Origin: a virus
Lineage: Duplodnaviria > Heunggongvirae > Uroviricota > Caudoviricetes
Virus record (IMG/VR): IMGVR_UViG_2698536549_000026
Length of the DNA stretch: 31,217 nt
Direction: 5' to 3' (one strand)
Positions 15,452-31,217 of the stretch are shown here, one piece after another (positions within the stretch are counted from its first letter, which is position 1; every line of letters begins with the position of its first letter). The notes under the pieces are model-generated. The model did no database searches and was not told the origin of the DNA. It saw only the letters and a program-made list of their open reading frames with translations. The position numbers were made by a program, and so were the translations under genes.

Positions 15452-15558
15452 GACGTGCCTCATATGAATAAAAAGGCGGGCTGTCCGGGATTCCACGGCC
15501 ATACAGTTTCCGTCACTGATGCCTCCTCCCGCGCCCGCCCGGCCCTGCGGGTAGTCGT

Positions 15559-18509: not shown

Positions 18510-20336
18510 ATGCGCCGCCATAATGGGCGCATGGCTAAATATTCTGACGAAATCAAAGAGGCGGCGCGATCGCTTTACCTGAAGCGGTGGCACCCCCGCG
18601 ATATTGCGGCGGAACTCGGTATTCCGCCGCGCACGGTTTACCACTGGTGTGATGTGGGGCAGTGGGCTACCCTGCTGCCCGCTGAATCCGTTGAGGACGT
18701 GATCGCCCGGCGTATTGATGTGCTGACCGGACGGGAGGGCAAGACAGAGTGTGAACTTGCCGAACTGCGTGAACTTATCGCGCAGCACGTGAAGATCATC
18801 GCCCAGAAAAACAAACACGCTGAAAGGATGGCGGAAATTGCCGCCCTGCGTCCGGCAGGGTATGAGGACGGCGCGGCTGCGGGGACCTGCGGCGGGGGAG
18901 AAGGGAAAAAGCGGCGCTACCGGAAAAACGACGTTTCCGGACTGACTGCTGAAATGCTGGATGAATGGGCGCGTAAAAAACTTTATGCCTACCAACTGCA
19001 CTGCCGCGAGAACCGGCACCGTGAGCGCCGTTTCATCCTCAAGAGCCGCCAGATCGGCATGACCTGGTATTTTGCATGGGAGGCGTTCGAAGATGCGGTG
19101 GTGACCGGTGATAACCAGATTTTCTTTTCTGCGTCACGGGTACAGGCGGAAATCTTCCGTGAATATATTATTAACTTCGCCCTGCAGTTCGGGATCACGC
19201 TCACGGGTAAACATATCCGTCTGAGCAATGGTGCAATGCTGCGTTTCCTGTCCACCAATGCCAGTACCGCCCAGGGATTTAACGGCCACCTTTACGGCGA
19301 TGAGGTGTTCTGGATCCCAAAATTCACGCGACTGCATGAAGTGGCCTCGGCAATGGCGACCCACGACAAATACCGCACGACGTATTTTTCCACACCCAGC
19401 GCCAAAACCCACCAGGCTTATCTGGTCTGGAATGGTGACGACTGGCGCGGGGATGACCCGGCGCGTCGTGCTGTTGAGTTTCCGAAAGAAAGCGCGATGC
19501 GTGTGGGCTGTGAATGCCCTGACGGGATCTGGCGCTACATTATCCGGCTGGAAGAGGCGGTGGCGGGTGGCCTGTCTGCTCGGGTTGATATTGAACGTAT
19601 CAGGAACCGCTACAATCCGACCACTTACGCGATGCTGTACGGCTGCGAGTTTGTTGACAGCAAGGATGCGGTATTTAAGTTCTCCGAACTGGTCAGGTGC
19701 GAGGTGGAGATGGAGACGTGGGGTGACTACGATCCCACGGCGGCACGTCCGTTCGGCAATCGTGAGGTGTGGGCGGGCTTTGACCCGTCAAGGTCCGGGG
19801 ATAATTCCACGTTTGTAATTGTGGCTCCGCCTGTCCATGAGGGCGAGCGGTTCCGTGTGCTCGCCGTCTGGCAGTGGCAGGGATTTAACTTCACCTGGCA
19901 GGCCGATCAGATTCGCGAACTGATGCAGCGTTTTAACATTACCTATATCGGCATAGATATCACCGGTATCGGGAAAGGGGTGTTTGATATCGTCAGTCGC
20001 TTTGCGCCACGTGAGGCTAACGCCATTCTTTACAGCGTGGAGAGCAAAAACCGCCTGGTGATGAAAATGATAGACGTGGTGGCCCATAAGCGTATCGAGT
20101 GGGCGAAAGACGCCATTGATGAGGCCAGCCGTGAACGCACGGAGATCCCCGCGTCGTTCATGTCCATACGCCGCACCACCACAAAAAGCGGTAACGCGCT
20201 GACGTTCGTGGCGGAACGGTCGGATGTTACGGGGCATGCGGATGTGTTTTTTGCCATTTCGCACGCCGTGATTAATGAGCCTGTAGATTATGACTATGAA
20301 CGCCCGTCCACATGGGCCTTCGGGAAAGCCGCATGA
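18510..20336 (+). CDS. P: terminase large (ATPase) subunit, P2 gpP family
   Basis: 608 aa with N-terminal HTH-like segment (RDIAAELGIPPRTVYHWC) and terminase ATPase/nuclease body. Divergent from O and followed by Q exactly as in P2. Start could be the ATG at 18531. Confidence 0.9.
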   Translation: MRRHNGRMAKYSDEIKEAARSLYLKRWHPRDIAAELGIPPRTVYHWCDVGQWATLLPAESVEDVIARRIDVLTGREGKTECELAELRELIAQHVKIIAQKNKHAERMAEIAALRPAGYEDGAAAGTCGGGEGKKRRYRKNDVSGLTAEMLDEWARKKLYAYQLHCRENRHRERRFILKSRQIGMTWYFAWEAFEDAVVTGDNQIFFSASRVQAEIFREYIINFALQFGITLTGKHIRLSNGAMLRFLSTNASTAQGFNGHLYGDEVFWIPKFTRLHEVASAMATHDKYRTTYFSTPSAKTHQAYLVWNGDDWRGDDPARRAVEFPKESAMRVGCECPDGIWRYIIRLEEAVAGGLSARVDIERIRNRYNPTTYAMLYGCEFVDSKDAVFKFSELVRCEVEMETWGDYDPTAARPFGNREVWAGFDPSRSGDNSTFVIVAPPVHEGERFRVLAVWQWQGFNFTWQADQIRELMQRFNITYIGIDITGIGKGVFDIVSRFAPREANAILYSVESKNRLVMKMIDVVAHKRIEWAKDAIDEASRERTEIPASFMSIRRTTTKSGNALTFVAERSDVTGHADVFFAISHAVINEPVDYDYERPSTWAFGKAA

Positions 20337-21385
20337 GCAAGAAACGCAGAAACAAAACGTCACGCGTGACGAAAAAAGCATTCACGCCCGCACGTGGCAG
20401 CACAATCACGTTTGGTCAGCCGGAACCGGTGCTGACCACCGGCACGGACTACCATAACATCTGGTATGACAACGAACACAACCACTGGCAGCTGCCGATT
20501 AACCGCCTGGCACTGGCGCAGCTCCCGAACCTTAACGCCCAGCACGGTGGGGTGCTGTATGCCCGCCGTAACATGGTGGCGGGGGGCTATACCGGTGGTG
20601 GCCTCACAACGGACCAGATGGAACAGGCGGTATTTGACTACCTGTTGTTCGGCGATCTCGCCCTGCTCAAGGTGCGTAACGTATTCGGCGACGTCGTGGC
20701 ACTTGAGCCGCTTCCGTCGCTGTATCTCCGGCGCCGCAAAACCGGTGAGTTCGTGGTGCTTCAGGAAGGCCCCGCGCTGGTCTATACGCCGGAAGATATT
20801 ATCTTTCTGCGGATGTATGATCCGCGTCAGCAAATTTACGGGCTGCCGGATTATATCGGTGGCATTCACTCGGCGCTGCTGAACAGCGAGGCCAGCCTTT
20901 TTCGTCGCCGTTACTACAACAACGGGGCGCATATGGGGTTTTTGCTGTATACGAACGACCCGGGGATCACCACGGAGATGGAGGATGAGATCCGCGAGAA
21001 GGTGGCGGAGTCTAAGGGGCTGGGAAATTTCCGCAATCTGTACATCAACATCCCCAAAGGTTCGCCGGATGGGGTGAAAATTATTCCGATTGGTGAGGTG
21101 AGCGCCAAGGATGAATTTTCAAACATCAAGGGGATCAGCGCCCAGGATGTGTTTACGGCACACCGCTTTCCTGCCGGTCTTGCGGGGATCATCCCCACGA
21201 ACGGGGCCACCATCCCTAACCCGGAAACGACGCGTGAAACGTACCGCAAGGATGAGGTGATACCGCTTCAGCGTAAAATCATGAACTCCGTGAACAGCGA
21301 TCCCGATATACCGGAACACCTTTATCTTCGTTTTGATGCAGACGCCGGGCATGTGGCGGAAGAAAAAGTGGTGCCGGTCGGGTAA
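20333..21385 (+). CDS. Q: portal protein, P2 gpQ family
   Basis: ORF track gives 20312..21385. ATG at 20333 (MSKKRRNKTSR...) forms an ATGA overlap with the P stop. Size about 350 aa and position fit gpQ. Confidence 0.9.
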   Translation: MSKKRRNKTSRVTKKAFTPARGSTITFGQPEPVLTTGTDYHNIWYDNEHNHWQLPINRLALAQLPNLNAQHGGVLYARRNMVAGGYTGGGLTTDQMEQAVFDYLLFGDLALLKVRNVFGDVVALEPLPSLYLRRRKTGEFVVLQEGPALVYTPEDIIFLRMYDPRQQIYGLPDYIGGIHSALLNSEASLFRRRYYNNGAHMGFLLYTNDPGITTEMEDEIREKVAESKGLGNFRNLYINIPKGSPDGVKIIPIGEVSAKDEFSNIKGISAQDVFTAHRFPAGLAGIIPTNGATIPNPETTRETYRKDEVIPLQRKIMNSVNSDPDIPEHLYLRFDADAGHVAEEKVVPVG

Positions 21386-21422
21386 AATGTCCTCCCCGGG
21401 ATACACGTTATCGGGAGGTAAG

Positions 21423-21686
21423 ATGCGGATTTTTAAAGCCCGGTGTCCGGACTGTGGCGCACCTGCTGTCATCCGGAAGACAGACTGGAAAACCCCTGAA
21501 CTTGCGGATCTGTACTGTGCATGCAGTGATGTCGAATGCGGGCATACCTTCGTCTGTACGATGACCTTTTCCCATACCCTCAGCCCCGGCGCCCGCTCCG
21601 GTCGCAATATGGTGAAGTTTCTTGTTGATGCCATGTGCCCGGAAGATCGCCGGTATGCGCTTGAACTACTGTCGCGGCGTTCCTGA
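21423..21686 (+). CDS. ogr: Ogr/Delta-family zinc-finger late transcription activator
   Basis: 87 aa from ATG at 21423 (GGAGG 8 nt upstream). MRIFKARCPDCGAPAVIRKTDWKTPELADLYCACSDVECGHTF carries the C-x2-C-x22-C-x4-C spacing diagnostic of Ogr. Confidence 0.85.
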   Translation: MRIFKARCPDCGAPAVIRKTDWKTPELADLYCACSDVECGHTFVCTMTFSHTLSPGARSGRNMVKFLVDAMCPEDRRYALELLSRRS

Positions 21687-21712
21687 CGCGCTTCGCTTGT
21701 CTGCTGCTTCGC

Positions 21713-21737
21713 CGGGGCAAAAAGAATTTTTGCCCCG
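21713..21737. terminator. perfect 11-bp inverted repeat (CGGGGCAAAAA-gaa-TTTTTGCCCCG) between convergent ogr and early operon
   Basis: Read directly. Sits in the 65-bp gap between two convergent transcription units. No clean U-tract on either side, so terminator function is inferred only. Confidence 0.35.
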
Positions 21738-21751
21738 ACTCACCAGCTCCT

Positions 21752-22078
21752 TTAACGGAATGCAGCGCCGTAGATAAACAGAATTCGCTTCATGATTTCG
21801 CTGCGCTTGCAGGCTTCGATGACTGATTTTTCCTGCTGCTGTTCAGCCCGTTGCGCCAGTTCCTGTCGTTCCTTTTCCGTTGGCTTCCGGTAATGCGTTA
21901 TCTTGTCCGTGTACCCGTCCACAACCAGCAACCCTTCCCGTACCATTTTTCCGGCGGCCTGATTAATGACGGTTCTTTTCACGCCCAGTTTTTCTACCAG
22001 TTCTGGGGCGCTGAAACGTGCGTGCGTTTCCAGGTAGCGTAAAATGATTTCCTTTCCGGTCATTCCTGGGGTCTTCAT
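21752..22078 (-). CDS. small winged-helix-like DNA-binding protein, last gene of the early operon
   Basis: ORF track gives 21752..22147. ATG at 22078 has AGGAG upstream and an ATGA overlap with the preceding gene, giving 108 aa. Segment KEIILRYLETHARFSAPELVEKLGVKRTVINQAAGKMVREGLLVV looks like a winged HTH. Confidence 0.5.
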   Translation of the reverse strand: MKTPGMTGKEIILRYLETHARFSAPELVEKLGVKRTVINQAAGKMVREGLLVVDGYTDKITHYRKPTEKERQELAQRAEQQQEKSVIEACKRSEIMKRILFIYGAAFR

Positions 22079-22245
22079 TTGGCGGCTCCTTCGTTGTTCC
22101 GGCGTTCCCGGAGTTCGGTCAGTGCTGCCAGTAAATTCTCCCACCATGTTTCTTCCACGACCGGGTTTTGTCGTGAAAGCAGCTGCTGCGCCGACTCAAT
22201 CATTTTCGTAAGCTCTCTGTCGCTGATCCTCCTGGTGCTGTTCAT
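22075..22245 (-). CDS. small hypothetical protein (about 57 aa)
   Basis: ORF track gives 22075..22284. In-frame ATG at 22245 has AAGGAG 7 nt upstream. Charged, helical-looking. No recognisable family. Confidence 0.4.
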   Translation of the reverse strand: MNSTRRISDRELTKMIESAQQLLSRQNPVVEETWWENLLAALTELRERRNNEGAAK

Positions 22246-22293
22246 GGTGCGCTCCTTTAGTTGGCTGTTTCTGGTTATGTTCATGGTCTTTGT

Positions 22294-22698
22294 TTACCTG
22301 CGTGATTGTCTGCCAGCGGCTGAATGCACATAGCGGGCAATTGCCGCTTTGCGGTTAATCGATGCCAGTGTTCTGGTCAGTTCTGCGTTGTGTTTGTGTG
22401 CCTGCTCTTCGTGGTACTGCCGCATGATTTTTCCGGCAGGCGTGAGCGGCTCCGGCTCTCCGGGCGGACGGCGCGGACGAACGGCGACAAGCCAGCTGCG
22501 GTTGGTGCTGTCCGGTCGTCCGTTGAGTATGTCGGTGATGATGGCCGTGGTGGTGCGATCGGGACTGACGACCGTGATTTCCAGCTCATCGCCCGGTTGT
22601 GGCCCCGTGGCAATGTTGTTCAGGGTCAGTAAGGGCGTGCGCTGGCGCATCATTTCGTCAAAACGCTGGCGCTGCATGGCGCAATAAAAGCGGGTCAT
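22294..22698 (-). CDS. hypothetical protein translationally coupled to replication gene A
   Basis: 134 aa. ATG overlaps the A stop (ATGA at 22695-22698) with GGAGG 8 nt upstream. No recognisable motif. Confidence 0.5.
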   Translation of the reverse strand: MTRFYCAMQRQRFDEMMRQRTPLLTLNNIATGPQPGDELEITVVSPDRTTTAIITDILNGRPDSTNRSWLVAVRPRRPPGEPEPLTPAGKIMRQYHEEQAHKHNAELTRTLASINRKAAIARYVHSAAGRQSRR

Positions 22699-25223
22699 TG
22701 TGGCGCCTCCGTATTCGGTGCGGGGGTGATATCAATGCGGCGGGTGCTGTCATTCCAGTACGCGGTGCGTCCGTCAGCCAGGCGCACGCGGGCACCGTGA
22801 CGGACGGAAACGACGGCGCTTTCATGCAGCTGCACGCCCAGCGCATCAAGCTCGCGGGTGATTTGTGCGGTGATGTGTGGCTCAGCGGTCAGTGCGACAC
22901 TCACGCGAACGCCGCCAGCGGACGCACTGATGCCGCCGTTTTTCACGGTTTCCGTGTCAGGTTGCGGGTTTTTCAACTGCCTGGTGAGTTGTTTTCGCTC
23001 TGTGGGGGTCAGTGACCTTAACCATTCACCCAAATCACCTTCCGGCAGGGTAAGTCGCTGCTCCCTGCGTCCGTCCGGCTGCCTTTCTGGCGGGTCGTTT
23101 ATGGTCAGATTCTGGTCAGGGGGACAGTTATTGCCACGAGTCCAAGGTGCGGCAAAGCCGCACTCAACGTCAAAACCCTCGTCCGTGCGGTCTTCGTTTT
23201 CCGGCTTACGTCTGACCAGTTTCCAGGTGTCCGGGTGGGTGCATATGGTGTAGCGCTCCCCGAGTGACGGGGCGCGGACGCCGTAAATGCGTTGCGGGAA
23301 TTCGCCGTAGTCGTTGGCCTCTTCGGCAGTTTCGTATGCGGTGCGGACCAGGTACGTGTTGCGGGGAATGAGCACACCACCCTGGCGGGTGATATAGGTG
23401 GCAAAACATCCCACGTCGGCGGCGGCCAGTATGGCGTCAATGTCGTCATGGTCCAGACGCTGCGGGGCAGCCGGGTTACGGGCCATTTGCCCGGCAAGAC
23501 GGCGGAGTTCGCGCCATACCTGGCGGGGAGGGATACCGAAGAACTGGAACTGGTGGATGCGGTGAAGGCCTGCCCAGCCGATGGCGTTCTCCACGGTTTC
23601 GGCCATGGTTTTGCCTGATTCCTTATCGACGTAAGGTTTGCCGGTTTTCGGGTCATTCCCCATGAAGGTGCTGGCGTCCAGGTTCTTACCGATATAGGTC
23701 GCGATATAGCTTGTCGGTGTGCCTTTTGCCGGGTCGATTTTTTTGCATTTAAAACGCGGGGAGATATCATCACCCAGCTCTGCGCGGTCCTCCCTGATGG
23801 CGGCGTTGCGCATGATTTCAGTGATACGGGCTTCGTTTTCCTGGCTGGTGAATACCAGCATGTGCCAGTGCGGTGTACCGTCGTGGTGGGGCTCCACGGT
23901 GCGCACGCCGTACCAGCCCAGCCCGGCCTTGTCGATGGCCCTGCGGACGGCGGCGAAAAAGCGGTAAACCAGATAATCACTGGCATCGCGTACCGTTGCT
24001 CCGCAGTATTTCGGGTTCAGGCTGCCGTCATCGTTCACGCTGTGAAAACGGGAAGGGGCTGTGACGGTGACGAAAAACGCCACGTCGCCGCGTGCTTCGG
24101 CGACCTGCTCCATTCCCCGGGCGCAGGTCATCATCTCGTTACGGCGGTTACGCGGATTAGAGAGACCTGCCCAGTAGATATCCTCAAGGCTGAACCGTTC
24201 TCCCTCTTCGTTCTCGATGTCCCAGGCCTTCAGAAAATCGCGGGTGCGCTGGCGTTTTTCGCGCCAGTCCAGTAACGCTTCATGGCTGATATATACCGAT
24301 GTCTTACGTGACACCAGACCTGCGGCGCGTAACAGTTCTTCACGCCAGATGTCCCGGAGGTGTCTTAACTGACTGTTCCACCATGTCGCACAGGAAAGGC
24401 GCATGACCGCACCCGGCACCCGTTCCGGGTCGGGGTCGGTGCGGCGGTCGGGCCTGATTTCCAGCGACGGCCAGCAGGGTGGCGTGATACCCAGTTTTAA
24501 CGCCATGTGTGCCAGTGGCTGGTAGGTCAGTAACCAGGTGAGCAGGTCATCGTCACCCCTGCCGGTCTTTTCGATGACTTCATCACATGCGCGCTCCAGT
24601 GCGGTGGAAAACGCGGTGGCGGTCAGGGTGGCAAGGCGCTGGATTTCGTCACGGCTCAGCTGTGGCAGCATAAGCAGTTCATCCAGCCGTTTGCGCGCGG
24701 CGGTGGCCTTAAAGGCCGGGGTGGCAAAGCGTTCATTCACACGGGCGATACGTTTCAGGCGGGCACGCAGCCCGTGACGAACGAAGTTATCCGCCGCATA
24801 TGCGCTGTTATTCTTAAGCCCTTCCCGGCGTGCGCTCTCCTGTTTGCGGCTCAGGCGCGCCAGGTCACGGATGAGCGGACCGGCAAGAAACGGCGGCAGG
24901 GCGCGCAGCTCTGCCATGGCTTCAGATACCAGTGTTGGCGGATTCTCGTGTTTGTGCCGCGCCAGTTTTTCCAGCCTGATCCGACGCTCTTCGTCGTGGT
25001 AAAGATGCGAATTAATTCGCTTCCCTTCGTCTGTGGTTGTCAGGAAGGCGACGGTTTCTTCATCCAGTCTGGCGTCAGTGCGAATATCCTCGTTGATGTA
25101 GCTCTGAATGGCCTGGCGTAATGCGGTTGGCTGCGCTCTGCCGAACGTTTCAGGATCGATAACCGGTAGCGGGGCGTTCCACGGGTACGCCAGTTGTGCA
25201 TTATGGTCGCTCATGCGTCGCAC
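22695..25223 (-). CDS. A: replication initiation protein (P2 gpA family rolling-circle endonuclease)
   Basis: 842 aa. Contains HUH-type motif (TPHWHMLVF) and catalytic-tyrosine region (TSYIATYIGKNLD) characteristic of the P2 A family. Confidence 0.9.
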   Translation of the reverse strand: MRRMSDHNAQLAYPWNAPLPVIDPETFGRAQPTALRQAIQSYINEDIRTDARLDEETVAFLTTTDEGKRINSHLYHDEERRIRLEKLARHKHENPPTLVSEAMAELRALPPFLAGPLIRDLARLSRKQESARREGLKNNSAYAADNFVRHGLRARLKRIARVNERFATPAFKATAARKRLDELLMLPQLSRDEIQRLATLTATAFSTALERACDEVIEKTGRGDDDLLTWLLTYQPLAHMALKLGITPPCWPSLEIRPDRRTDPDPERVPGAVMRLSCATWWNSQLRHLRDIWREELLRAAGLVSRKTSVYISHEALLDWREKRQRTRDFLKAWDIENEEGERFSLEDIYWAGLSNPRNRRNEMMTCARGMEQVAEARGDVAFFVTVTAPSRFHSVNDDGSLNPKYCGATVRDASDYLVYRFFAAVRRAIDKAGLGWYGVRTVEPHHDGTPHWHMLVFTSQENEARITEIMRNAAIREDRAELGDDISPRFKCKKIDPAKGTPTSYIATYIGKNLDASTFMGNDPKTGKPYVDKESGKTMAETVENAIGWAGLHRIHQFQFFGIPPRQVWRELRRLAGQMARNPAAPQRLDHDDIDAILAAADVGCFATYITRQGGVLIPRNTYLVRTAYETAEEANDYGEFPQRIYGVRAPSLGERYTICTHPDTWKLVRRKPENEDRTDEGFDVECGFAAPWTRGNNCPPDQNLTINDPPERQPDGRREQRLTLPEGDLGEWLRSLTPTERKQLTRQLKNPQPDTETVKNGGISASAGGVRVSVALTAEPHITAQITRELDALGVQLHESAVVSVRHGARVRLADGRTAYWNDSTRRIDITPAPNTEAPQ

Positions 25224-25627
25224 TCCCCGGCAGTCGCCGCCTGAAACGCCGCGCGGTACAGCACGAGAAGGCGCTGGTATTCACCGATAAAGTCTTCTGC
25301 GGTGTATATACCTTTCACGGCCACGCTGTGGTTTGTCATTTCCAGAACAAGCGTCATCTCTGACGACGACCAGCTGATGGCGGTGCTGTCGGTTCCGTTG
25401 ATGTGAAATAAACCAAAACCATCACCATCACCTTTCACGTCCACGCGGTAACGGTCGTCAACGGTGAAGGAGAAATCCCCGTATGTGGTGACGCGTCTGG
25501 TGGCCTGTTTACAGGCGCGGCGGTAATAGTCGTGCCAGTCGTTCAGGCGGGAAGCCAGCCGGGGATCCACTGCCCACATCCAGTTAAAAAAGTCCTGAAT
25601 ATCTGAAAGTCCCTTAACGCTCTTCAT
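25211..25627 (-). CDS. hypothetical early protein immediately upstream of A
   Basis: 138 aa. ATG at 25627 has GGAGG about 7 nt upstream. Overlaps the A start by 13 nt. Function unknown. Confidence 0.5.
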   Translation of the reverse strand: MKSVKGLSDIQDFFNWMWAVDPRLASRLNDWHDYYRRACKQATRRVTTYGDFSFTVDDRYRVDVKGDGDGFGLFHINGTDSTAISWSSSEMTLVLEMTNHSVAVKGIYTAEDFIGEYQRLLVLYRAAFQAATAGECDA

Positions 25628-25695
25628 GAGAACCTCCGGTAACAGACGTGCGGAAGCCTCCCGCGCACGGGTGCGGGATGGCTTCAGGATGTTGT

Positions 25696-25923
25696 TTAGT
25701 GGTGGTGTTGCTGGTTGATAAGGTCCTGCAGTTCTGCCAGGTCTTCGGCCAGATAGCTGAAGACTGCCGCGTAATACCCGGCAGCGATACCATCGTTAAG
25801 TCGATGTAATGCGTTTGACTGCATGATGAAGGTGACAGATGCAGCCCGATGGAGTCTGCGGTTAATTTCAGTGCGGATGTGAAGACGCTCAGCGCGGGCG
25901 CGCTGTTGTTTGCGGTTTGCCAT
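25696..25923 (-). CDS. hypothetical small basic protein
   Basis: 75 aa. ATG at 25923 has AAGAGG upstream. Arg-rich N-terminus, ends in HHH. Confidence 0.4.
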   Translation of the reverse strand: MANRKQQRARAERLHIRTEINRRLHRAASVTFIMQSNALHRLNDGIAAGYYAAVFSYLAEDLAELQDLINQQHHH

Positions 25924-25999
25924 GGTGTTTGGCCTCTTGTAGTAAGTTCTGAAAACTCACCAACCCGAGGTTCCAAGCTCAGGGTGGCGAGACGTACAG

Positions 26000-26152
26000 G
26001 GTTGGAACTACCGGCTACAAGAGATCCCGGCCCGACCGAAGTCGGCCCCGTACGCCCCGCCATAATTCTGACGCGAAAAAGACGTGGCGATACAGTACGC
26101 ACAAAAAAACCGCTGGCGCGGTTGTGCGCTCTTGTAGTCGGCGGGGTTCCAA
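26000..26152. repeat. inverted repeats of a two-part motif (CTCTTGTAG-N6/7-GGTTCCAA) flanking about 105 bp, with a third partial direct copy at 25934-25976
   Basis: 26002-26023 TTGGAACTACCGGCTACAAGAG is the reverse complement of a near-copy of 26129-26152 CTCTTGTAGTCGGCGGGGTTCCAA. Both half-motifs recur at 25934-25942 and 25969-25976. Lies in a 320-bp non-coding gap. Confidence 0.6.
26102..26123 (-). terminator. intrinsic terminator-like hairpin on the minus strand inside the early operon
   Basis: Minus-strand sequence AACCGC-GCCA-GCGGTT followed by TTTTTTT (revcomp of 26102-26123). Downstream of the 184-aa gene, upstream of the 75-aa/138-aa/A genes. Confidence 0.5.
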
Positions 26153-26243
26153 TCCCGGCACCCGTTTTATGAGGTGCGGGAAAACTGTAACCCGACCAGG
26201 CGAACGCTGGCAAGCGGTTTTTTTGTGTGTGCATGATGATCAC

Positions 26244-26798
26244 TCAGTCCGGTAACAGTTCACAGAGCACTGCGTCAGTTGCGGTGCGGCGGTGGTAGAG
26301 ATGAAACGCCGCATCGTCGTTAATGTGCATCTGTATCGTGCTGTTGATGTGTTCAGCGATCATGCAGAACGTCATGTTGTGTATGTCGCGTAGCTCCGTG
26401 ACCAGCTCAACCAGATGATCGCTGTATCTGGCGCAATGGTGGTTCTCACCGCATTTTTTCAGGTTGTAACCCCGTTTACGCAGTGTGTACCTCACTGTGC
26501 ACTCACTGCATCCCACTTCCAGAGCCATTTCCTGTGCGGTTTTTACATGACGGTTTTTAATAAGAAAGGCTATGGCTTCTGTACTCAGTGGTGCTTTTCT
26601 CTTGCGGCCAATCAGCCCACGATTACGTAAAAAACGAATCCGGTACATAACTGCTTTACGGGTTCGCTGAATTCGTTCAGCCATCTGATGTGTGTTGTGT
26701 TCCTGATAAAGCGAGATGAGTAACCGATCTTCCTGCTGTGTCCACGCCTTCACATGTGCCGGGGCTTTGCCCGGTATTCCCATTGGTGTAAGTCTCAT
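26244..26798 (-). CDS. putative DNA-binding protein with two HTH-like segments
   Basis: 184 aa with two segments resembling HTH/region-4-like motifs (THQMAERIQRTRKAVMYRIRFLRNRG and AQEMALEVGCSECTVRYTLRKRGYNL). Early-operon position. Family uncertain. Confidence 0.45.
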   Translation of the reverse strand: MRLTPMGIPGKAPAHVKAWTQQEDRLLISLYQEHNTHQMAERIQRTRKAVMYRIRFLRNRGLIGRKRKAPLSTEAIAFLIKNRHVKTAQEMALEVGCSECTVRYTLRKRGYNLKKCGENHHCARYSDHLVELVTELRDIHNMTFCMIAEHINSTIQMHINDDAAFHLYHRRTATDAVLCELLPD

Positions 26799-26824
26799 CG
26801 CGATAACCTCCGTTACTGTTCCGG

Positions 26825-27037
26825 TTATTCGGTCGGGTTCAGGGTGTAATCAATGGCGTTTTCAATACGGCGTTTAAGGTCCCGGTGGATCTCACCTGGT
26901 GTTACTGGTGCGCCCGGACCGCTCAGCGTTGCCGTGAAGTCGTCGATTTCCTCCAGTAACAGATTGCGGAGTACGGCGATGTGGTGGCGTGCGTCTTTAC
27001 CGGGTTTACGTGCGTTGGTGGTGTACTTGCTGATCAT
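26825..27037 (-). CDS. hypothetical small early protein
   Basis: ORF track gives 26825..27076. Internal ATG at 27037 forms an ATGA overlap with the upstream gene stop, giving about 70 aa. Confidence 0.4.
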   Translation of the reverse strand: MISKYTTNARKPGKDARHHIAVLRNLLLEEIDDFTATLSGPGAPVTPGEIHRDLKRRIENAIDYTLNPTE

Positions 27038-27291
27038 GGCCGCAGCTCTCCGTGGGCTTGTGTTTCTGATTTCCATGCCCCTCTGATGGTCATTACTTCG
27101 CGAACGGTACTGGCAATCGCGGTGATTTGTGTTCCGTCAGCCAGATGGATGTAGAGATAATCAGCGTCTGACGGGCACGGCGTGGTCGTTGTGATCAAAT
27201 GACTTTCCACCATGAACTCGTGGCCCACGGCATCGGTGAAACGCGTCAGCATGGTGGCGGTAAATATGCTGTTCATCGACCTGCCCCTCAC
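27034..27291 (-). CDS. hypothetical small early protein
   Basis: 85 aa. ATGA overlap with the upstream gene stop at 27288-27291. Confidence 0.4.
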   Translation of the reverse strand: MRGRSMNSIFTATMLTRFTDAVGHEFMVESHLITTTTPCPSDADYLYIHLADGTQITAIASTVREVMTIRGAWKSETQAHGELRP

Positions 27292-27566
27292 GCTGAAAAC
27301 TGGCCGGACTGTGCCCGGAGTTCTGCCAGTTCGCGCTCGAGGCGCAGGTTTTTCATATAGAGTTCACTGATGGTCTGTTTTGCTGTCACCATTGCCATGC
27401 TTTGCATTTGCAGGGCCATGTAAGTAGCAAAATGCTTGTCTTTATCTATTTCTGATATTCTTTCATCCAGTACATTGGTTATTTCAGTCAGCGTTTTTTG
27501 CGTCAATTCAATATGCGCCGGGTCGGTAAATAGTTTGTTTATTTCTGTAGGTGTATTGGTGCTCAT
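27288..27566 (-). CDS. hypothetical small early protein, predicted coiled coil
   Basis: 92 aa with heptad-like C-terminus (ELYMKNLRLERELAELRAQ). AT-rich region. Confidence 0.4.
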   Translation of the reverse strand: MSTNTPTEINKLFTDPAHIELTQKTLTEITNVLDERISEIDKDKHFATYMALQMQSMAMVTAKQTISELYMKNLRLERELAELRAQSGQFSA

Positions 27567-27645
27567 AGCTGTTTCTCCGTTTCTGGATTGAGTGAAGCCC
27601 TCCGCAGATGCGGATGGTTTTAATGTTTTCTGTCCGGTTGGTTAT

Positions 27646-27771
27646 TTATTTACGGCGTTCTTCGCCAGTAAATAAAGATTCGATATTTTTCAGCGCTTCG
27701 ATAATTCGCATAATGCCAATCGCCATAAGCACGGAAATAATCAGAATCACCCATGAAAGAAATACGCTCAT
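27646..27771 (-). CDS. small single-pass membrane peptide (41 aa), not in the ORF track
   Basis: Translated by hand: MSVFLSWVILIISVLMAIGIMRIIEALKNIESLFTGEERRK. ATG at 27769-27771 overlaps the stop of the 80-aa gene (ATGA). Hydrophobic N-terminal helix, charged tail, stop TAA at 27646-27648. Confidence 0.4.
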   Translation of the reverse strand: MSVFLSWVILIISVLMAIGIMRIIEALKNIESLFTGEERRK

Positions 27772-28010
27772 GCTGCATTCCCAAGTGCGTATGGCTCAAT
27801 ATGTACTCCGCATTCTGCATCACGAACAAGCTCAGACAGCTCATTGAGAGCATCCAGATCGTCAGCGTAAAAAGCTGCGTCATACAGGCTGCGAATTGCT
27901 CTGGTCAGTGAGTCTCTTGCTGCATGTTCTGCGGCAACTCCTGACATACTCAGGCGAAAGTTAAAGCGCTCAAGGGCTTTATTGATGAGAACCTTATATT
28001 CTTTGTCCAT
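27768..28010 (-). CDS. hypothetical small early protein
   Basis: 80-aa ORF, co-oriented in the early operon. Confidence 0.4.
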   Translation of the reverse strand: MDKEYKVLINKALERFNFRLSMSGVAAEHAARDSLTRAIRSLYDAAFYADDLDALNELSELVRDAECGVHIEPYALGNAA

Positions 28011-28030
28011 TGTATTTCCCCGGAAAACAA

Positions 28031-28285
28031 TTAAACAAAATCGCTTAATGATTTACCTGATTCAATCTTCTCTATCGTGTCTTCAATAGCCATGTATGCG
28101 GCGTAATCGCCTGCGAGGTCGGCGCATTTCTGTAGCCCCTGTAATGCGCTGATGATATCTTCTTTTGCTTCCCATAAAGGTTTTGCTGTATTTAGTGCAT
28201 TACGGGCATTATTAGCTATGAGCCGGTGTATGATAATTGTGTAGGCTGATGCTATCTCTGCCATGTCTTTTGTCGTTGTTGCCAT
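28031..28285 (-). CDS. hypothetical small early protein
   Basis: 84-aa ORF, co-oriented in the early operon. Confidence 0.4.
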   Translation of the reverse strand: MATTTKDMAEIASAYTIIIHRLIANNARNALNTAKPLWEAKEDIISALQGLQKCADLAGDYAAYMAIEDTIEKIESGKSLSDFV

Positions 28286-28288
28286 GTA

Positions 28289-28675
28289 TTAATTCCCCCA
28301 TGGATGCTGAAAACTGCGACCGCTGATTAACCGGTCTGCCGTTCTTAATGCTTCGTGCAGGGTGAAATCCTGCCCGAACTGCTCATCTCCGCGAGTCAGG
28401 GAGTAACAGGTATTTCCGGTAATCGGGTTGCGTGCGCCTCTGTGTATGACAATTCCGGCATCATTAATCAGCCAGGTGTGTTTACCGGTTTGTTTAACCG
28501 GATGCCCGTCAGGTGTGGCGTGCGTTTCCTGCAGGCTATAGTGCGTGTTGCTGCGTGATGCACTGGTTGAGAAACGGGCTGCGTGGCGTTCTGTGCCAGT
28601 GCGGAAGTTGCGTCGCTGTGTCATATCGGAAAACCCGCTTAAGTTAAAAGAATTGAAATAACGGTGTATTGGCAT
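28289..28675 (-). CDS. hypothetical early protein
   Basis: 128-aa ORF. Start abuts the stop of the preceding gene. Confidence 0.45.
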   Translation of the reverse strand: MPIHRYFNSFNLSGFSDMTQRRNFRTGTERHAARFSTSASRSNTHYSLQETHATPDGHPVKQTGKHTWLINDAGIVIHRGARNPITGNTCYSLTRGDEQFGQDFTLHEALRTADRLISGRSFQHPWGN

Positions 28676-28906
28676 TTATGCCCAGTTGTCTTTTCTTATT
28701 ACTGTTTCATTCTGAAATCCTGTCTGCTCCATTGCATTTTTTAAGGACTCTTCTGTTTCAAATGTCACAACGATGCAATGGGTCGGGTAATGGAAATACA
28801 AATCGTTGCCAGCCCGAACAATGGCATCTAAGTTCTGATTACAGATTATTACTGAAGCGTCGTCGCTTATTTTTATTCTTTGTCTGATTTCCGTGTGTTT
28901 AATCAT
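28676..28906 (-). CDS. hypothetical small early protein (position of P2 orf78)
   Basis: 76-aa ORF immediately downstream of the cox-like gene, AT-rich. Confidence 0.45.
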   Translation of the reverse strand: MIKHTEIRQRIKISDDASVIICNQNLDAIVRAGNDLYFHYPTHCIVVTFETEESLKNAMEQTGFQNETVIRKDNWA

Positions 28907-28936
28907 CTTGCCCCTCCAATGATTGCCAGTTCTATA

Positions 28937-29362
28937 TCACGCAGCTTTTTTACTGATGCGTTTATTCCGTGAACCAGCTGCTGGCTTAAATAAAAAAAGT
29001 CGGTTTTCCCATTCGTGCCATTCTTGCGGTGCGTTTTCAGTGAGTCGATCGCAGGCTTCATCCCACGCTTTCCGGTTGATGTAGAGTTCGGCGTTTCCGC
29101 CAGGCTTGAGAGGGTCCGCCATGTACACAGCGGGTAATTTCCCTGCTTTTGCCATGCTCACGATGGCGTCAACGGTCTTGCCGATATACATCGCAAACCC
29201 TTCTTTTGACAGGAGATGAGAAGGGTTTTGTGAAAGCCTGATTTCCTGGCGTTCAGGGGCTTTGCGCCCGGTCTTTTGGTGTGCGGTTTCTGGCGCATCT
29301 GTCAACTGATCGCACTGTGTTTCGGCAGGCGATTCAGGCGCGTTTTGAGTGACTTCTTGCAT
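28937..29362 (-). CDS. cox: Cox-like excisionase / early transcriptional regulator
   Basis: ORF track gives 28937..29401. ATG at 29362 has GGAGG 8 nt upstream, giving about 141 aa. Segment FAMYIGKTVDAIVSMAKAGKLPAVYMADPLKPGGNAELYINRKAWDEA resembles P2 Cox (FAKLIGKSTGAVRRMIDKGKLPVIDMTDP...). First gene of the early operon, divergent from the repressor. Confidence 0.6.
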   Translation of the reverse strand: MQEVTQNAPESPAETQCDQLTDAPETAHQKTGRKAPERQEIRLSQNPSHLLSKEGFAMYIGKTVDAIVSMAKAGKLPAVYMADPLKPGGNAELYINRKAWDEACDRLTENAPQEWHEWENRLFLFKPAAGSRNKRISKKAA

Positions 29363-29477
29363 CTGGTATCCTCCGTTATTGGTGCTATTTCTATCTGGCA
29401 CTAGTTGGAACCACTTAGAACATTTCTTTTTATGTTCATATGTGGTATTAATCTACACATATGTAGGAGTTTGTCAA
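29363..29477. promoter_or_regulatory. immunity switch region between divergent cox-like and repressor genes (promoters/operators)
   Basis: 115-bp gap. Contains repeated CACTAG/CACTTAG elements (29399-29418) and palindrome CATATGTG-N11-CACATATG (29437-29463) centred on TATTAAT. Confidence 0.55.
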
Positions 29478-29744
29478 ATGGACATTCCTCAAAAAATTCG
29501 CGTCATGCGTAAATCTGAAGATCTCACTCAACGGGAGTTCGCTGATATGATTGGAATTTCTTACTCTGCTCTGACCAGTTATGAGTATGGTCGTAACCTT
29601 CCTGGTCTTGAGATCACTATCAAGCTTTTTAAGCACCCGAGATTTTCTAAATACCGAGACTGGTTTTTGTTCGATGAGGTCGAACCAAAGGCCGGACAGG
29701 TGGTGCCGGCTCTCGCACACATTGGGCAAAGCGAAGCTGAATAG
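29478..29744 (+). CDS. C-type immunity repressor paralogue, C-terminally truncated (88 aa)
   Basis: ORF track gives 29349..29744. ATG at 29478 has AGGAG upstream. MDIPQKIRVMRKSEDLTQREFADMIGISYSALTSYEYGRNLP...FSKYRDWFLFDEVEPKAGQVVPALAHIGQSEAE-stop. C-terminal 35 residues nearly identical to the downstream repressor, N-terminal HTH half divergent. Confidence 0.75.
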   Translation: MDIPQKIRVMRKSEDLTQREFADMIGISYSALTSYEYGRNLPGLEITIKLFKHPRFSKYRDWFLFDEVEPKAGQVVPALAHIGQSEAE

Positions 29745-29855
29745 TCCATCTGATACCCTCCGTTATTGGTGCTATTTCTATTAGCACTAGTTAGAGCCGC
29801 CTAGATTGTCTCTGGGTGTGTTTATTGATGCATAAACTAAGAGAGTTAACTTACT
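29745..29855. repeat. duplicated copy of the cox-proximal promoter/operator/RBS segment, between the two repressor genes
   Basis: 29748-29808 (CATCTGATACCCTCCGTTATTGGTGCTATTTCTATTAGCACTAGTTAGAGCCGCCTAG) is a near-copy of 29359-29420 (CATCTGGTATCCTCCGTTATTGGTGCTATTTCTATCTGGCACTAGTTGGAACCACTTAG). Confidence 0.7.
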
Positions 29856-30155
29856 ATGTCAACTAACGTAGGTGAAAAAATTAGAATCATGCGTAAGTCT
29901 GAAATGCTTACACAAGAAAAAATGGCTGAAATTACAGGGCTCACGGTAGCGGCCCTGCGTCAATATGAGCAGGGGAGAAATGAGCCAAATCTTGAATCCA
30001 CAAAAAAGCTGCTCAAGTCTCCCGTCTTCCGTAAATACCGTGACTGGTTTTTGTTCGATGAGGTCGAACCAAAGGCCGGGCAGGTGGTACCGGCTCTCGC
30101 ACACATTGGGCAAAGCGAAGCGGAATCATCCCACTCCGGCAAGAAGACTGGTTAA
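29856..30155 (+). CDS. C: immunity repressor, P2 C family
   Basis: 99 aa, MSTNVGEKIRIMRKSEMLTQEKMAEITGLTVAALRQYEQGRNEP...PALAHIGQSEAESSHSGKKTG. Closely parallels P2 C along its whole length (MSNTISEKIVLMRKSEYLSRQQLADLTG...PALAHFGQNETTSPHSGQKTG). Confidence 0.85.
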   Translation: MSTNVGEKIRIMRKSEMLTQEKMAEITGLTVAALRQYEQGRNEPNLESTKKLLKSPVFRKYRDWFLFDEVEPKAGQVVPALAHIGQSEAESSHSGKKTG

Positions 30156-30221
30156 CGGTCCATCTGGCCTTTATTTCTCAAAATTGTGATCAAGATGATG
30201 TTTTCATTGGGGGGCTTCCTT

Positions 30222-31217
30222 ATGTCGATTAAGAAGCTCGCTGATGGCAAATACTGTGTGGACGTGCGGCCTGCTGGATCTGAAGGAAGAAGATTTCGGC
30301 GGCGATTTCCTACCCGTGGTGAAGCGGCGATGTATGAACGCCATGTTCTGACGCATTATCACGATAAGGACTGGGTCGAAAAACCTATTGAACGTAAAGC
30401 GTTAAGCGATCTTCTGGAACTGTGGTGGGTGTACCACGGTAAGAATCATCGTTATGGCGCGATGAATCGGGTCAGAATTGAAGCGGTTCTTCGTGATATG
30501 CAAGAGCTTGGTATTAACAGAAGTGACCACTTAACCCGAAAAAATATTATCAGATATCGCCTTGAATTAATGAATCGCGGAATTAAGCAGTCAACGGTAA
30601 ATCGTTATTGTGCAATGATGAGCGGTTTCTTTGAAAAGCTGATTGATGTTGAAGAGTTTGTGGGTGATAACCCGTTTCACGAGATACGCAAGCTAACAAT
30701 TAATCAGCCGGAAATGGCTTATCTTGCACATGATGATATTCCCAGGCTAACCGCACTTTTATCTGGCGATAATCTTAAGGCTGTATTGTTAAGCTTGGCT
30801 ACAGGCGGGCGCTGGGGTGAAGTTGCCAATATTAAAGGTGAACACATAATTGGTGGGAAGGTTATTTTCATGGAGACAAAGAATGGATCGCGGCGGGTTA
30901 TTCCTATAGCTAAAGATCTTGAATCTCTGATTAAAGTCAAAGCGACGGGAAGATTAATGAACCCCAGTTATGCGATAGTCAGAAGTGCAATAAGGACTGT
31001 GCGGCCTGATTTACCAGTCGGTCAGTCTGTGCATGTTTTACGGCACACATTCGCAACTCATTTCATGATTAATGGAGGGAACATTATTACCCTTCAGCGT
31101 ATTTTAGGGCACAGCACAATTCAGCAGACAATGACCTATGCGCACTTTGCACCTGATTATCTCCAGGACGCGGTAAGGTTCAATCCGGTTGCGGAGTTGT
31201 CCAGATTTTGCCCATAA
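30222..31217 (+). CDS. int: tyrosine integrase (P2 Int family)
   Basis: ORF track gives 30186..31217 from a GTG. ATG at 30222 gives about 331 aa. C-terminal catalytic region HVLRHTFATHFMINGGNIITLQRILGHSTIQQTMTYAHFAP with conserved R...HxxR...Y. Stop at 31215-31217, so attP/attR lies just beyond the window. Confidence 0.9.
   Translation: MSIKKLADGKYCVDVRPAGSEGRRFRRRFPTRGEAAMYERHVLTHYHDKDWVEKPIERKALSDLLELWWVYHGKNHRYGAMNRVRIEAVLRDMQELGINRSDHLTRKNIIRYRLELMNRGIKQSTVNRYCAMMSGFFEKLIDVEEFVGDNPFHEIRKLTINQPEMAYLAHDDIPRLTALLSGDNLKAVLLSLATGGRWGEVANIKGEHIIGGKVIFMETKNGSRRVIPIAKDLESLIKVKATGRLMNPSYAIVRSAIRTVRPDLPVGQSVHVLRHTFATHFMINGGNIITLQRILGHSTIQQTMTYAHFAPDYLQDAVRFNPVAELSRFCP

Follow-up and report, generated by a model that had tools for sequence, protein, structure and literature searches.

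Our analysis of a 31,217-nucleotide stretch of Caudoviricetes DNA (IMG/VR record IMGVR_UViG_2698536549_000026; this whole stretch is hereafter the window) revealed that a perfect palindrome at 21713-21737 is the core of a conserved intergenic element of 66 bp (CTGACGCGCTTCGCTTGTCTGCTGCTTCGCCGGGGCAAAAAGAATTTTTGCCCCGACTCACCAGCT, 21683-21748, with no strand assigned). Judging from comparison with related phages and prophages, this element appears to be an unusually conserved hairpin module that carries no U-tract and sits at a boundary between phage modules. The reading that we favour, and to which we give an even chance of being right, is that the palindrome is the stem-loop of this element and that two converging transcription units would end there. 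The palindrome is probably not the packaging site (cos) of this phage, which we would place outside the window, beyond the tail genes.

A perfect palindrome lies between convergent genes

The palindrome reads CGGGGCAAAAA-GAA-TTTTTGCCCCG on the + strand, with two fully complementary arms of 11 bp around a spacer of 3 nt, and direct readout of the sequence confirmed both the exact arms and the position given for it in the first-pass annotation. The 65-bp gap that the same annotation had described between ogr and the convergent early operon is likewise correct, and runs stop to stop from 21687 to 21751. To its left lies an Ogr/Delta-like zinc-finger gene (21423-21686, + strand; Pfam PF04606, E = 1.2e-15, in line with PGAP annotation), which is the final gene of a rightward P-Q-ogr block and whose TGA stop codon (21684-21686) falls within the first bases of the 66-bp element. 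To its right lies a winged-helix/MarR-like cargo gene (21752-22078, - strand; assigned by domain search and by PGAP annotation of a 99% identical E. coli prophage), which belongs to the gpA-gpQ hotspot and whose stop codon is 4 nt from the right edge of the element. The element fills the space from the ogr stop to near the stop of this first opposite-strand gene; 26 nt separate the ogr stop from the stem, which is 14 nt away from the stop of the - strand gene.

Gene order across the region is P (large terminase), Q, ogr, element, cargo, two small genes and A, with the two small genes and the replication gene A on the - strand and the integrase gene at the window's right end. The portal gene Q (20333-21385, + strand) is SI7-like and is 31% identical at the protein level to Q of P88, and the arrangement of Q followed by ogr is common to the window, SI7 and relatives in 10 genera. 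Within the Q-ogr gap of the window (21391-21418) we also observed an inverted repeat, CCTCCC...GGGAGG, that would fold the ogr ribosome-binding site into a hairpin; the corresponding spacer of SI7 relatives differs, being ~60 bp long and strongly conserved, and contains CCATTG-TTAG-CAATGG.

Within the 31-kb window there is no other perfect inverted repeat with arms of at least 10 bp and a loop of at most 8, and an inverted-repeat scan for a second copy of the palindrome in the window returned none. First-order Markov simulation gave an expectation of 0.115 11-bp repeats of this kind per window, and because 8% of the simulated sequences hold at least one, the palindrome is by chance alone only mildly improbable; it is its conservation among the phages compared that marks it as a real feature. 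The RNA hairpin has a calculated energy of -17 kcal/mol on the + strand and -22.5 kcal/mol on the - strand (z = -3.8 and z = -4.9 against shuffled sequences, respectively), and the corresponding DNA fold has z = -4.8. The stem comprises 11-13 bp, extending to 13 pairs in the - strand RNA, with six G-C pairs at its base, and is in this respect the GC-rich stem-loop of an intrinsic terminator; its A5 and T5 runs sit inside the stem, beside the loop. An A5/T5 core of this kind is likely to be intrinsically bent DNA.

The element is nearly invariant across phage lineages

When we searched the region from 20900 to 22700 for high-identity matches in phages, only ~74 bp were recovered, i.e., the gap itself. 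The match to P88-like phages (Xuanwuvirus, Gemsvirus), in which the element lies directly after the portal gene, is 91-94% identical and has sharp edges. We delimited the 66-bp unit by scans of viral contigs and E. coli genomes, and its edges are constant in all contexts, with at least six distinct flanks on the left and at least eight distinct and unrelated flanks on the right. To its left, the element adjoins the end of ogr or of one of two types of Q, one of them that of P88, and in different lineages these + strand genes stop at the element's own TGA. In phages of the L127 type, an inserted cargo gene instead precedes the element, with its promoter side towards it. On the right, the - strand cargo gene of sister prophages, whichever one is present, ends 0-60 nt from the element's edge. 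Among complete E. coli genomes, 1,111 of 5,426 (about 20%) carry the element, with a median of one copy and a maximum of three copies per genome, nearly always at a phage portal gene. A search of the literature on P88, Xuanwuvirus and the P2 hotspots returned no description of it.

Across eight distinct variants from several phage lineages, variation is seen at 10 of the 44 positions outside the stem, while the 22 positions of the stem show no uncompensated change and all 88 of its cells are paired. A single stem pair has changed on both sides, being A-T in the window and T-A in the P88 types, and by this double change the P88 arms (CGGGGCATAAA/TTTATGCCCCG) keep the palindrome; the loop occurs as GAA, AAA, GGA or AA. 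The probability that 10 single changes would all miss the stem by chance is ~0.017, calculated as (44/66)^10. Substitutions avoid the stem, and the hairpin appears to be under selection. The one covarying pair is weak when taken alone, as 73 of 500 shuffles reach the same level. A search for divergent copies in which covariation might be seen yielded, besides the window type, just one loop variant, one deletion of 1 nt in the loop and one rearranged form; since the element is nearly invariant, its covariation support consists of a single event.

In two contigs from IMG genome 2563366990 (L182 at 10335 and L203 at 9900), the right half of the element is an inverted copy of the left half, giving arms of 21 bp (GCTGCTTCGCCGGGGCAAAAA / TTTTTACCCCGGCGAAGCAGC). 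This variant looks like a product of palindrome-driven template switching.

Conservation also extends over the 26 nt between the ogr stop and the hairpin (21687-21712), a C/U-rich and A-poor stretch that is nearly invariant across lineages. Direct readout of this part of the + strand gives two direct GCTTCGC heptamers, at 21690-21696 and 21706-21712. The stretch as a whole could be a Rho loading stretch or a protein site.

Two converging transcription units would end at the hairpin

In the reading that we favour, the late block (P-Q-ogr, rightward) and the early/cargo operon (from A to the MarR-like gene, leftward) would converge at the element, where the transcript of either strand would form the same stable hairpin. 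The hairpin would mark and protect the 3' ends of both converging transcripts and would block each transcript from antisense run into the other, serving as a pause or barrier and as an exonuclease-resistant end, probably with the aid of Rho or of polymerase collision; Rho may load on the 26 nt that separate stop codon from stem and are rich in C/U and poor in A. It is unlikely that the hairpin is a self-sufficient intrinsic terminator. Cargo genes would be exchanged on either side of the element, and because the job needs host RNA polymerase and not phage-specific proteins, the element could be moved unchanged between unrelated P2-like lineages. The sequence, its conservation and limits, the hairpin, the slot shared with terminators and the lack of association with terminase type are results of the comparison; from them we infer both the ending of transcripts at the hairpin and the mechanism by which it would occur.

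As alternatives to a packaging site, the first-pass annotation had suggested a bidirectional terminator or a protein-binding site. The position of the palindrome, its strong symmetric hairpin and the genes that, in all contexts examined, stop at the element's edges on both strands agree with that suggestion, but the T-run of a terminator is absent: the 3' flanks of the stem are ACTCACCAGC on the + strand and GCGAAGCAGC on the - strand, with no T-run on either, and a consensus terminator scan did not include the hairpin among its terminator-like sites. The element has the stem-loop and the post-operon slot of an intrinsic terminator, but because there is no T-run 3' of the stem it departs from classic intrinsic termination.

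The slot after portal or ogr is one that terminators occupy in P2, 186, SI7 and prophages of eight genera. In P2 the annotated terminator tQ lies 5 bp after Q, and in 186 tW lies directly after the portal gene, the same slot as the element; SI7 has an ordinary intrinsic terminator after ogr (AAGCCCGCATAAAGCGGGCTTTTTT), which like those of related prophages is bidirectional. Prophages of Citrobacter, Hafnia, Buttiauxella, Erwinia, Serratia, Providencia and Enterobacter, as well as SI7, have canonical GC hairpins with T-runs, often with A-runs before them, directly after ogr. Like tQ, tW and the SI7-type terminators, the element is a GC-rich stem-loop at the end of the late block, facing the early/cargo region; unlike them, it has no external T-run, holds its A5/T5 inside the stem and brings 26 extra conserved nt. 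Its sequence hardly changes from one lineage to the next, whereas that of ordinary terminators is different in each phage.

A stable palindrome between convergent genes also recalls REP/BIME sequences and the conserved 'linker' sequences at module boundaries of temperate phages, and like these the element could protect mRNA 3' ends or supply shared homology for module exchange. REP/BIME sequences differ from it in that the element is not dispersed, being present as one copy per P2-like prophage near the portal gene, and we know of no sequence similarity between it and the REP consensus.

Several observations count against the reading that we favour. The 26 invariant nt at 21687-21712, with their two GCTTCGC heptamers, are not obviously needed by a terminator; the L127-type Q has its own canonical terminator, and the element is still kept beyond the cargo; and near-identity across lineages could stem from recent recombination instead of function. 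Because the reading leaves the invariant 26 nt, the exact edges and the retention in L127-type phages unexplained, rival readings as a protein site, a recombination anchor and a module-joining site persist.

The element travels with the early and cargo module

Comparison along the length of the window indicates that its phage is a chimera, with an SI7-like structural half and a P88-like early half that includes the element. From 58 to 21591 (tail, head, terminase, portal and ogr) the window has ~70% DNA identity to Salmonella phage SI7 (Irrigatiovirus), with protein identities of 66% for gpM, 77% for gpP and 68% for the capsid. From 21681 to 31217 (early region, gene A and integrase side) it instead has ~78% DNA identity to P88-like phages, and this P88 homology begins exactly at 21681, so that the joint lies at the ogr stop codon and the left edge of the element. 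Gene A of the window is 78-89% identical to gene A of element-bearing phages (the closest figure for the protein being 89%, to L064) vs. 35% to that of SI7, and the packaging proteins are distant from those of P88 (29% for gpM and 36% for gpP, besides the 31% for Q). Carriers of the element fall into at least four portal/terminase lineages that are mutually about 30-70% identical. Because gene A tracks the element while gpM, gpP and Q diverge among its carriers, we conclude that the element travels with the early/cargo module, independently of the packaging genes.

Gene A, which otherwise diverges, has a block of ~40 bp (~23119-23161) that keeps 86-97% identity in prophages of several genera; the block is probably the replication origin or nick site that P2-type A proteins cut within their own gene. 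Except for blocks inside gene A, our search for conserved non-coding DNA between ogr and A among SI7 relatives found none.

P2-like phages carry cos and an adjoining cargo hotspot between Q and A (Rousset et al. 2022, PMC9122126), and the cos-proximal gpA-gpQ hotspot is traced to Dodd and Egan 1996 where that work is cited in PMC5694545. The element resembles the borders of this hotspot in being the fixed edge of a variable cargo slot, which contains the winged-helix/MarR-like gene in the window (21752-22100), genes for proteins of 72 aa and 54 aa in prophage L130 (1937-2650), and a gene for a protein of 187 aa in prophage L131 (1950-2700). The latter two are sister prophages that are 97-98% identical elsewhere, with unrelated cargo at the same junction. 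Cos and a terminator serve as the fixed borders in classical P2 and 186, whereas here the hairpin element borders the late genes, and cargo is also found on its other side, as in L127.

Some P88-like phages, such as L127 (6035-6640), have the final ~6 codons of Q replaced and carry, between Q and the element, an inserted canonical terminator and leftward cargo gene. Cargo slots therefore flank the element on both sides.

Protein binding, recombination and module joining as alternatives

The palindrome might be bound by a dimeric protein that the host or the P88-like early module encodes and that acts as a roadblock, a regulator or an architectural factor, with the GCTTCGC repeats as auxiliary sites. 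We consider this unlikely. A binding site would suit the perfect dyad of 11+11 bp, kept by a symmetric double change, the A5/T5 core of a type that is generally likely to be bent, the 26 invariant flanking nt with their two direct heptamers, and the movement of the element with the early module. However, contiguous arms with a 3-bp spacer are equally expected of an RNA hairpin, and the window holds a single copy of the palindrome; we identified no protein, other than that of gene A, shared by all carriers, and the adjoining winged-helix gene is cargo that is missing from most of them.

Also unlikely, in our estimate, is that the element lacks a biochemical role of its own and borders the gpA-gpQ hotspot as a homology anchor or a hitch-hiking remnant, with its uniformity kept by frequent recombination among co-resident P2-like prophages. 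Its 0-5 differences per 66 bp next to neighbouring genes of saturating divergence are what this would predict; cargo junctions lie exactly at both edges, the window phage is itself a recombinant joined at the left edge, and a rearranged variant with 21-bp arms is known. Random joints, however, should give ragged edges and remnants of the donor, whereas the same 66 bp are delimited everywhere, and because the limits are the same in every context, selection would seem to act on the whole block. The absence of all 10 single changes from the 22 stem positions among 66, expected by chance at the ~0.017 given above, and a hairpin far more stable than its shuffles also argue against an anchor with no role of its own.

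A further reading, which we rate as decidedly unlikely, is that the element is a dedicated and lineage-independent cis site bordering the defence/cargo hotspot, a landing pad at both of whose exact edges cassettes, and even whole structural or early modules, would be joined. Joining could proceed by a site-directed mechanism, or by breakage and template switching promoted by the hairpin or a cruciform. If true, this would explain why the element is found unchanged in unrelated P2-like phages of a fifth of E. coli genomes.

The packaging site probably lies beyond the tail genes

By analogy with P2, the first-pass annotation had also raised the possibility that the packaging site is in the gap. 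In its most specific form, the element would be cos or the nicking part of cos, with terminase cutting in or beside the palindrome and GGTGAGTCGGGGCAAAAAT of the - strand representing a diverged P2-type cohesive end; we regard this as very unlikely. The cos sites of the P2 family reportedly have a core of 55 bp (Ziermann and Calendar 1990), and their 19-nt ends are GGCGAGGCGGGGAAAGCAC. The element is of similar size, forms an island of conservation beside variable cargo, as adjoins cos in P2 and P4, and lies between portal gene Q and replication gene A, where cos sites of the P2 family lie (PMC9122126). In the window lineage, no other non-coding DNA of appreciable length is conserved between Q and A, and the - strand of the element holds a 12-mer, GGTGAGTCGGGG, with a single mismatch to the GGYGAGGCGGGG with which the P2 and RSA1 cohesive ends open, oriented to Q as in P2.

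These likenesses are not borne out by similarity to the cos core. Alignment with the cos regions of P2 and 186, a check that the first pass had proposed, found nothing significant: of all targets tested, a cos profile of P2, P4 and 186 matched best in the element of the sister prophage L130, at a non-significant E = 0.18 (nhmmer), the window itself gave E = 4.9, and none of 113 related loci matched at E < 0.01. The 19-mer of the P2 cohesive end is absent from the window even with up to 3 mismatches, so that the first pass was right in seeing no convincing match to it, and BLAST of the cos-side regions of P2 and P88 against the window returned nothing above noise. The 12-mer belongs to a class that occurs at chance frequency, with 65 instances in the window vs. 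~50 expected, 5 of which have at most one mismatch. Among the phage records in our collection, none starts or ends in the element, and we found no literature report of a cos site for P88 or Xuanwuvirus.

Other cos-like candidates were set aside. GC-rich look-alikes of the cos start in the gap downstream of A in SI7, in the conserved Q-ogr spacer of SI7 relatives and in the P/O spacer were put down to chance. The gap between M and L (15452-15558) strikingly resembles GGGCGGGCGAGG of P2 cos, but it is a long hairpin that P2 and SI7 likewise have between M and L, and hence not cos. On the - strand, this spacer between gpM and the head-completion gene contains a long GC-rich hairpin followed by TTTTTATT, shares CAGTGACGG, and keeps its architecture in SI7 and P2; it is perhaps an internal attenuator or terminator of the O-N-M-L operon.

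The relation between element and terminase also argues against cos. Terminase and cos have to match, yet the element occurs with small subunits that share 29% identity, with 0-5 differences per 66 bp beside gpM and gpP that are 29-36% identical to those of the window, and it does not co-vary with terminase. The closest terminase relatives, SI7, SW3 and SW5 (gpM 66%, gpP 77%), are without the element and have a plain terminator in its slot; prophages in ten other genera with a window-type portal are without it as well, and it entered the chimera with the early module and not with the terminase. Compared with cos sites of the P2 family, the element has the Q-A location and has neither the sequence likeness nor the matching to terminase. 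With no significant cos match, no tracking of terminase and a terminator in the same slot of SI7, a packaging site in the gap is not supported.

Separate conserved non-coding blocks in which phage records start exist in both the P88-like and the window lineages, and these also speak against the element as cos. In P2 and 186, cos lies ~160 bp beyond tQ or tW. P88-like phages have a conserved non-coding block of 260 bp ~130 bp beyond the element, present in 1,106 genomes, which contains GGATCC/GACGGA repeats, a GC-rich core and three TTGTGCA repeats. A block of the same architecture is found at SI7 20421-20640 and, in the window lineage, beside the tail genes, ~300 bp to the left of position 1 (NZ_CP027323.1 ~646,400-646,700; L177 5400-5700); the latter block is homologous to that of SI7 and contains TTTGCA(A/C)AA repeats, CACCCCGCCAG and GGCGTGTGCGGGG.

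The records of the sister phage SW5 and of LR595891.1 start inside such blocks. The start of SW5 corresponds to SI7 position 20480, and the P88_4B11 record starts 21-26 nt from there on the opposite strand of the aligned block, an offset roughly like that of staggered cos nicks. This evidence is weak, since the start of a record may be an arbitrary choice; for LR595891.1, nucleotide 1 was set 'relative to reference genomes' (Mathieu et al. 2020). In E. coli, the block and a window-type gpM co-occur in 12 of 12 genomes and at 15 of 15 places. From these comparisons, cos probably lies in the block ~300 bp to the left of the window, which is a better candidate than the element.

The prophage in NZ_CP027323.1 is inserted between serS and dmsA. 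Its left end, which the window does not include, carries three Hok/Gef toxin genes between serS and the phage tail genes (644,690-646,028).

Finally, it is extremely unlikely that the element encodes or terminates a small regulatory RNA, since a stable hairpin within a conserved non-coding block and a sub-threshold match to RF01740 (gyrA RNA; the best in an Rfam 15 scan of the element, at 25.2 bits vs. a gathering score of 45, with nothing else near and no family at threshold) are set against a promoter scan that returned no promoter-like site in or beside the element, the lack of the U-tail of Hfq-type small RNAs, and a length of only 66 bp with coding sequence on both sides.

Implications for P2-like phages

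For the annotation of prophages, these results mean that cos should not be annotated between ogr and the early operon, and that the packaging site of this lineage is probably found beyond the tail genes, just outside the window. They also point to a discrete 66-bp element as a fixed border of the P2-like cargo (defence-gene) hotspot, common to lineages whose packaging genes are unrelated. If the hairpin stops transcripts from both sides without a U-tract, convergent operons would have in it a compact natural insulator; if the element instead helps modules to join, it would be relevant to the shuffling of defence cargo and whole genome halves among temperate phages.
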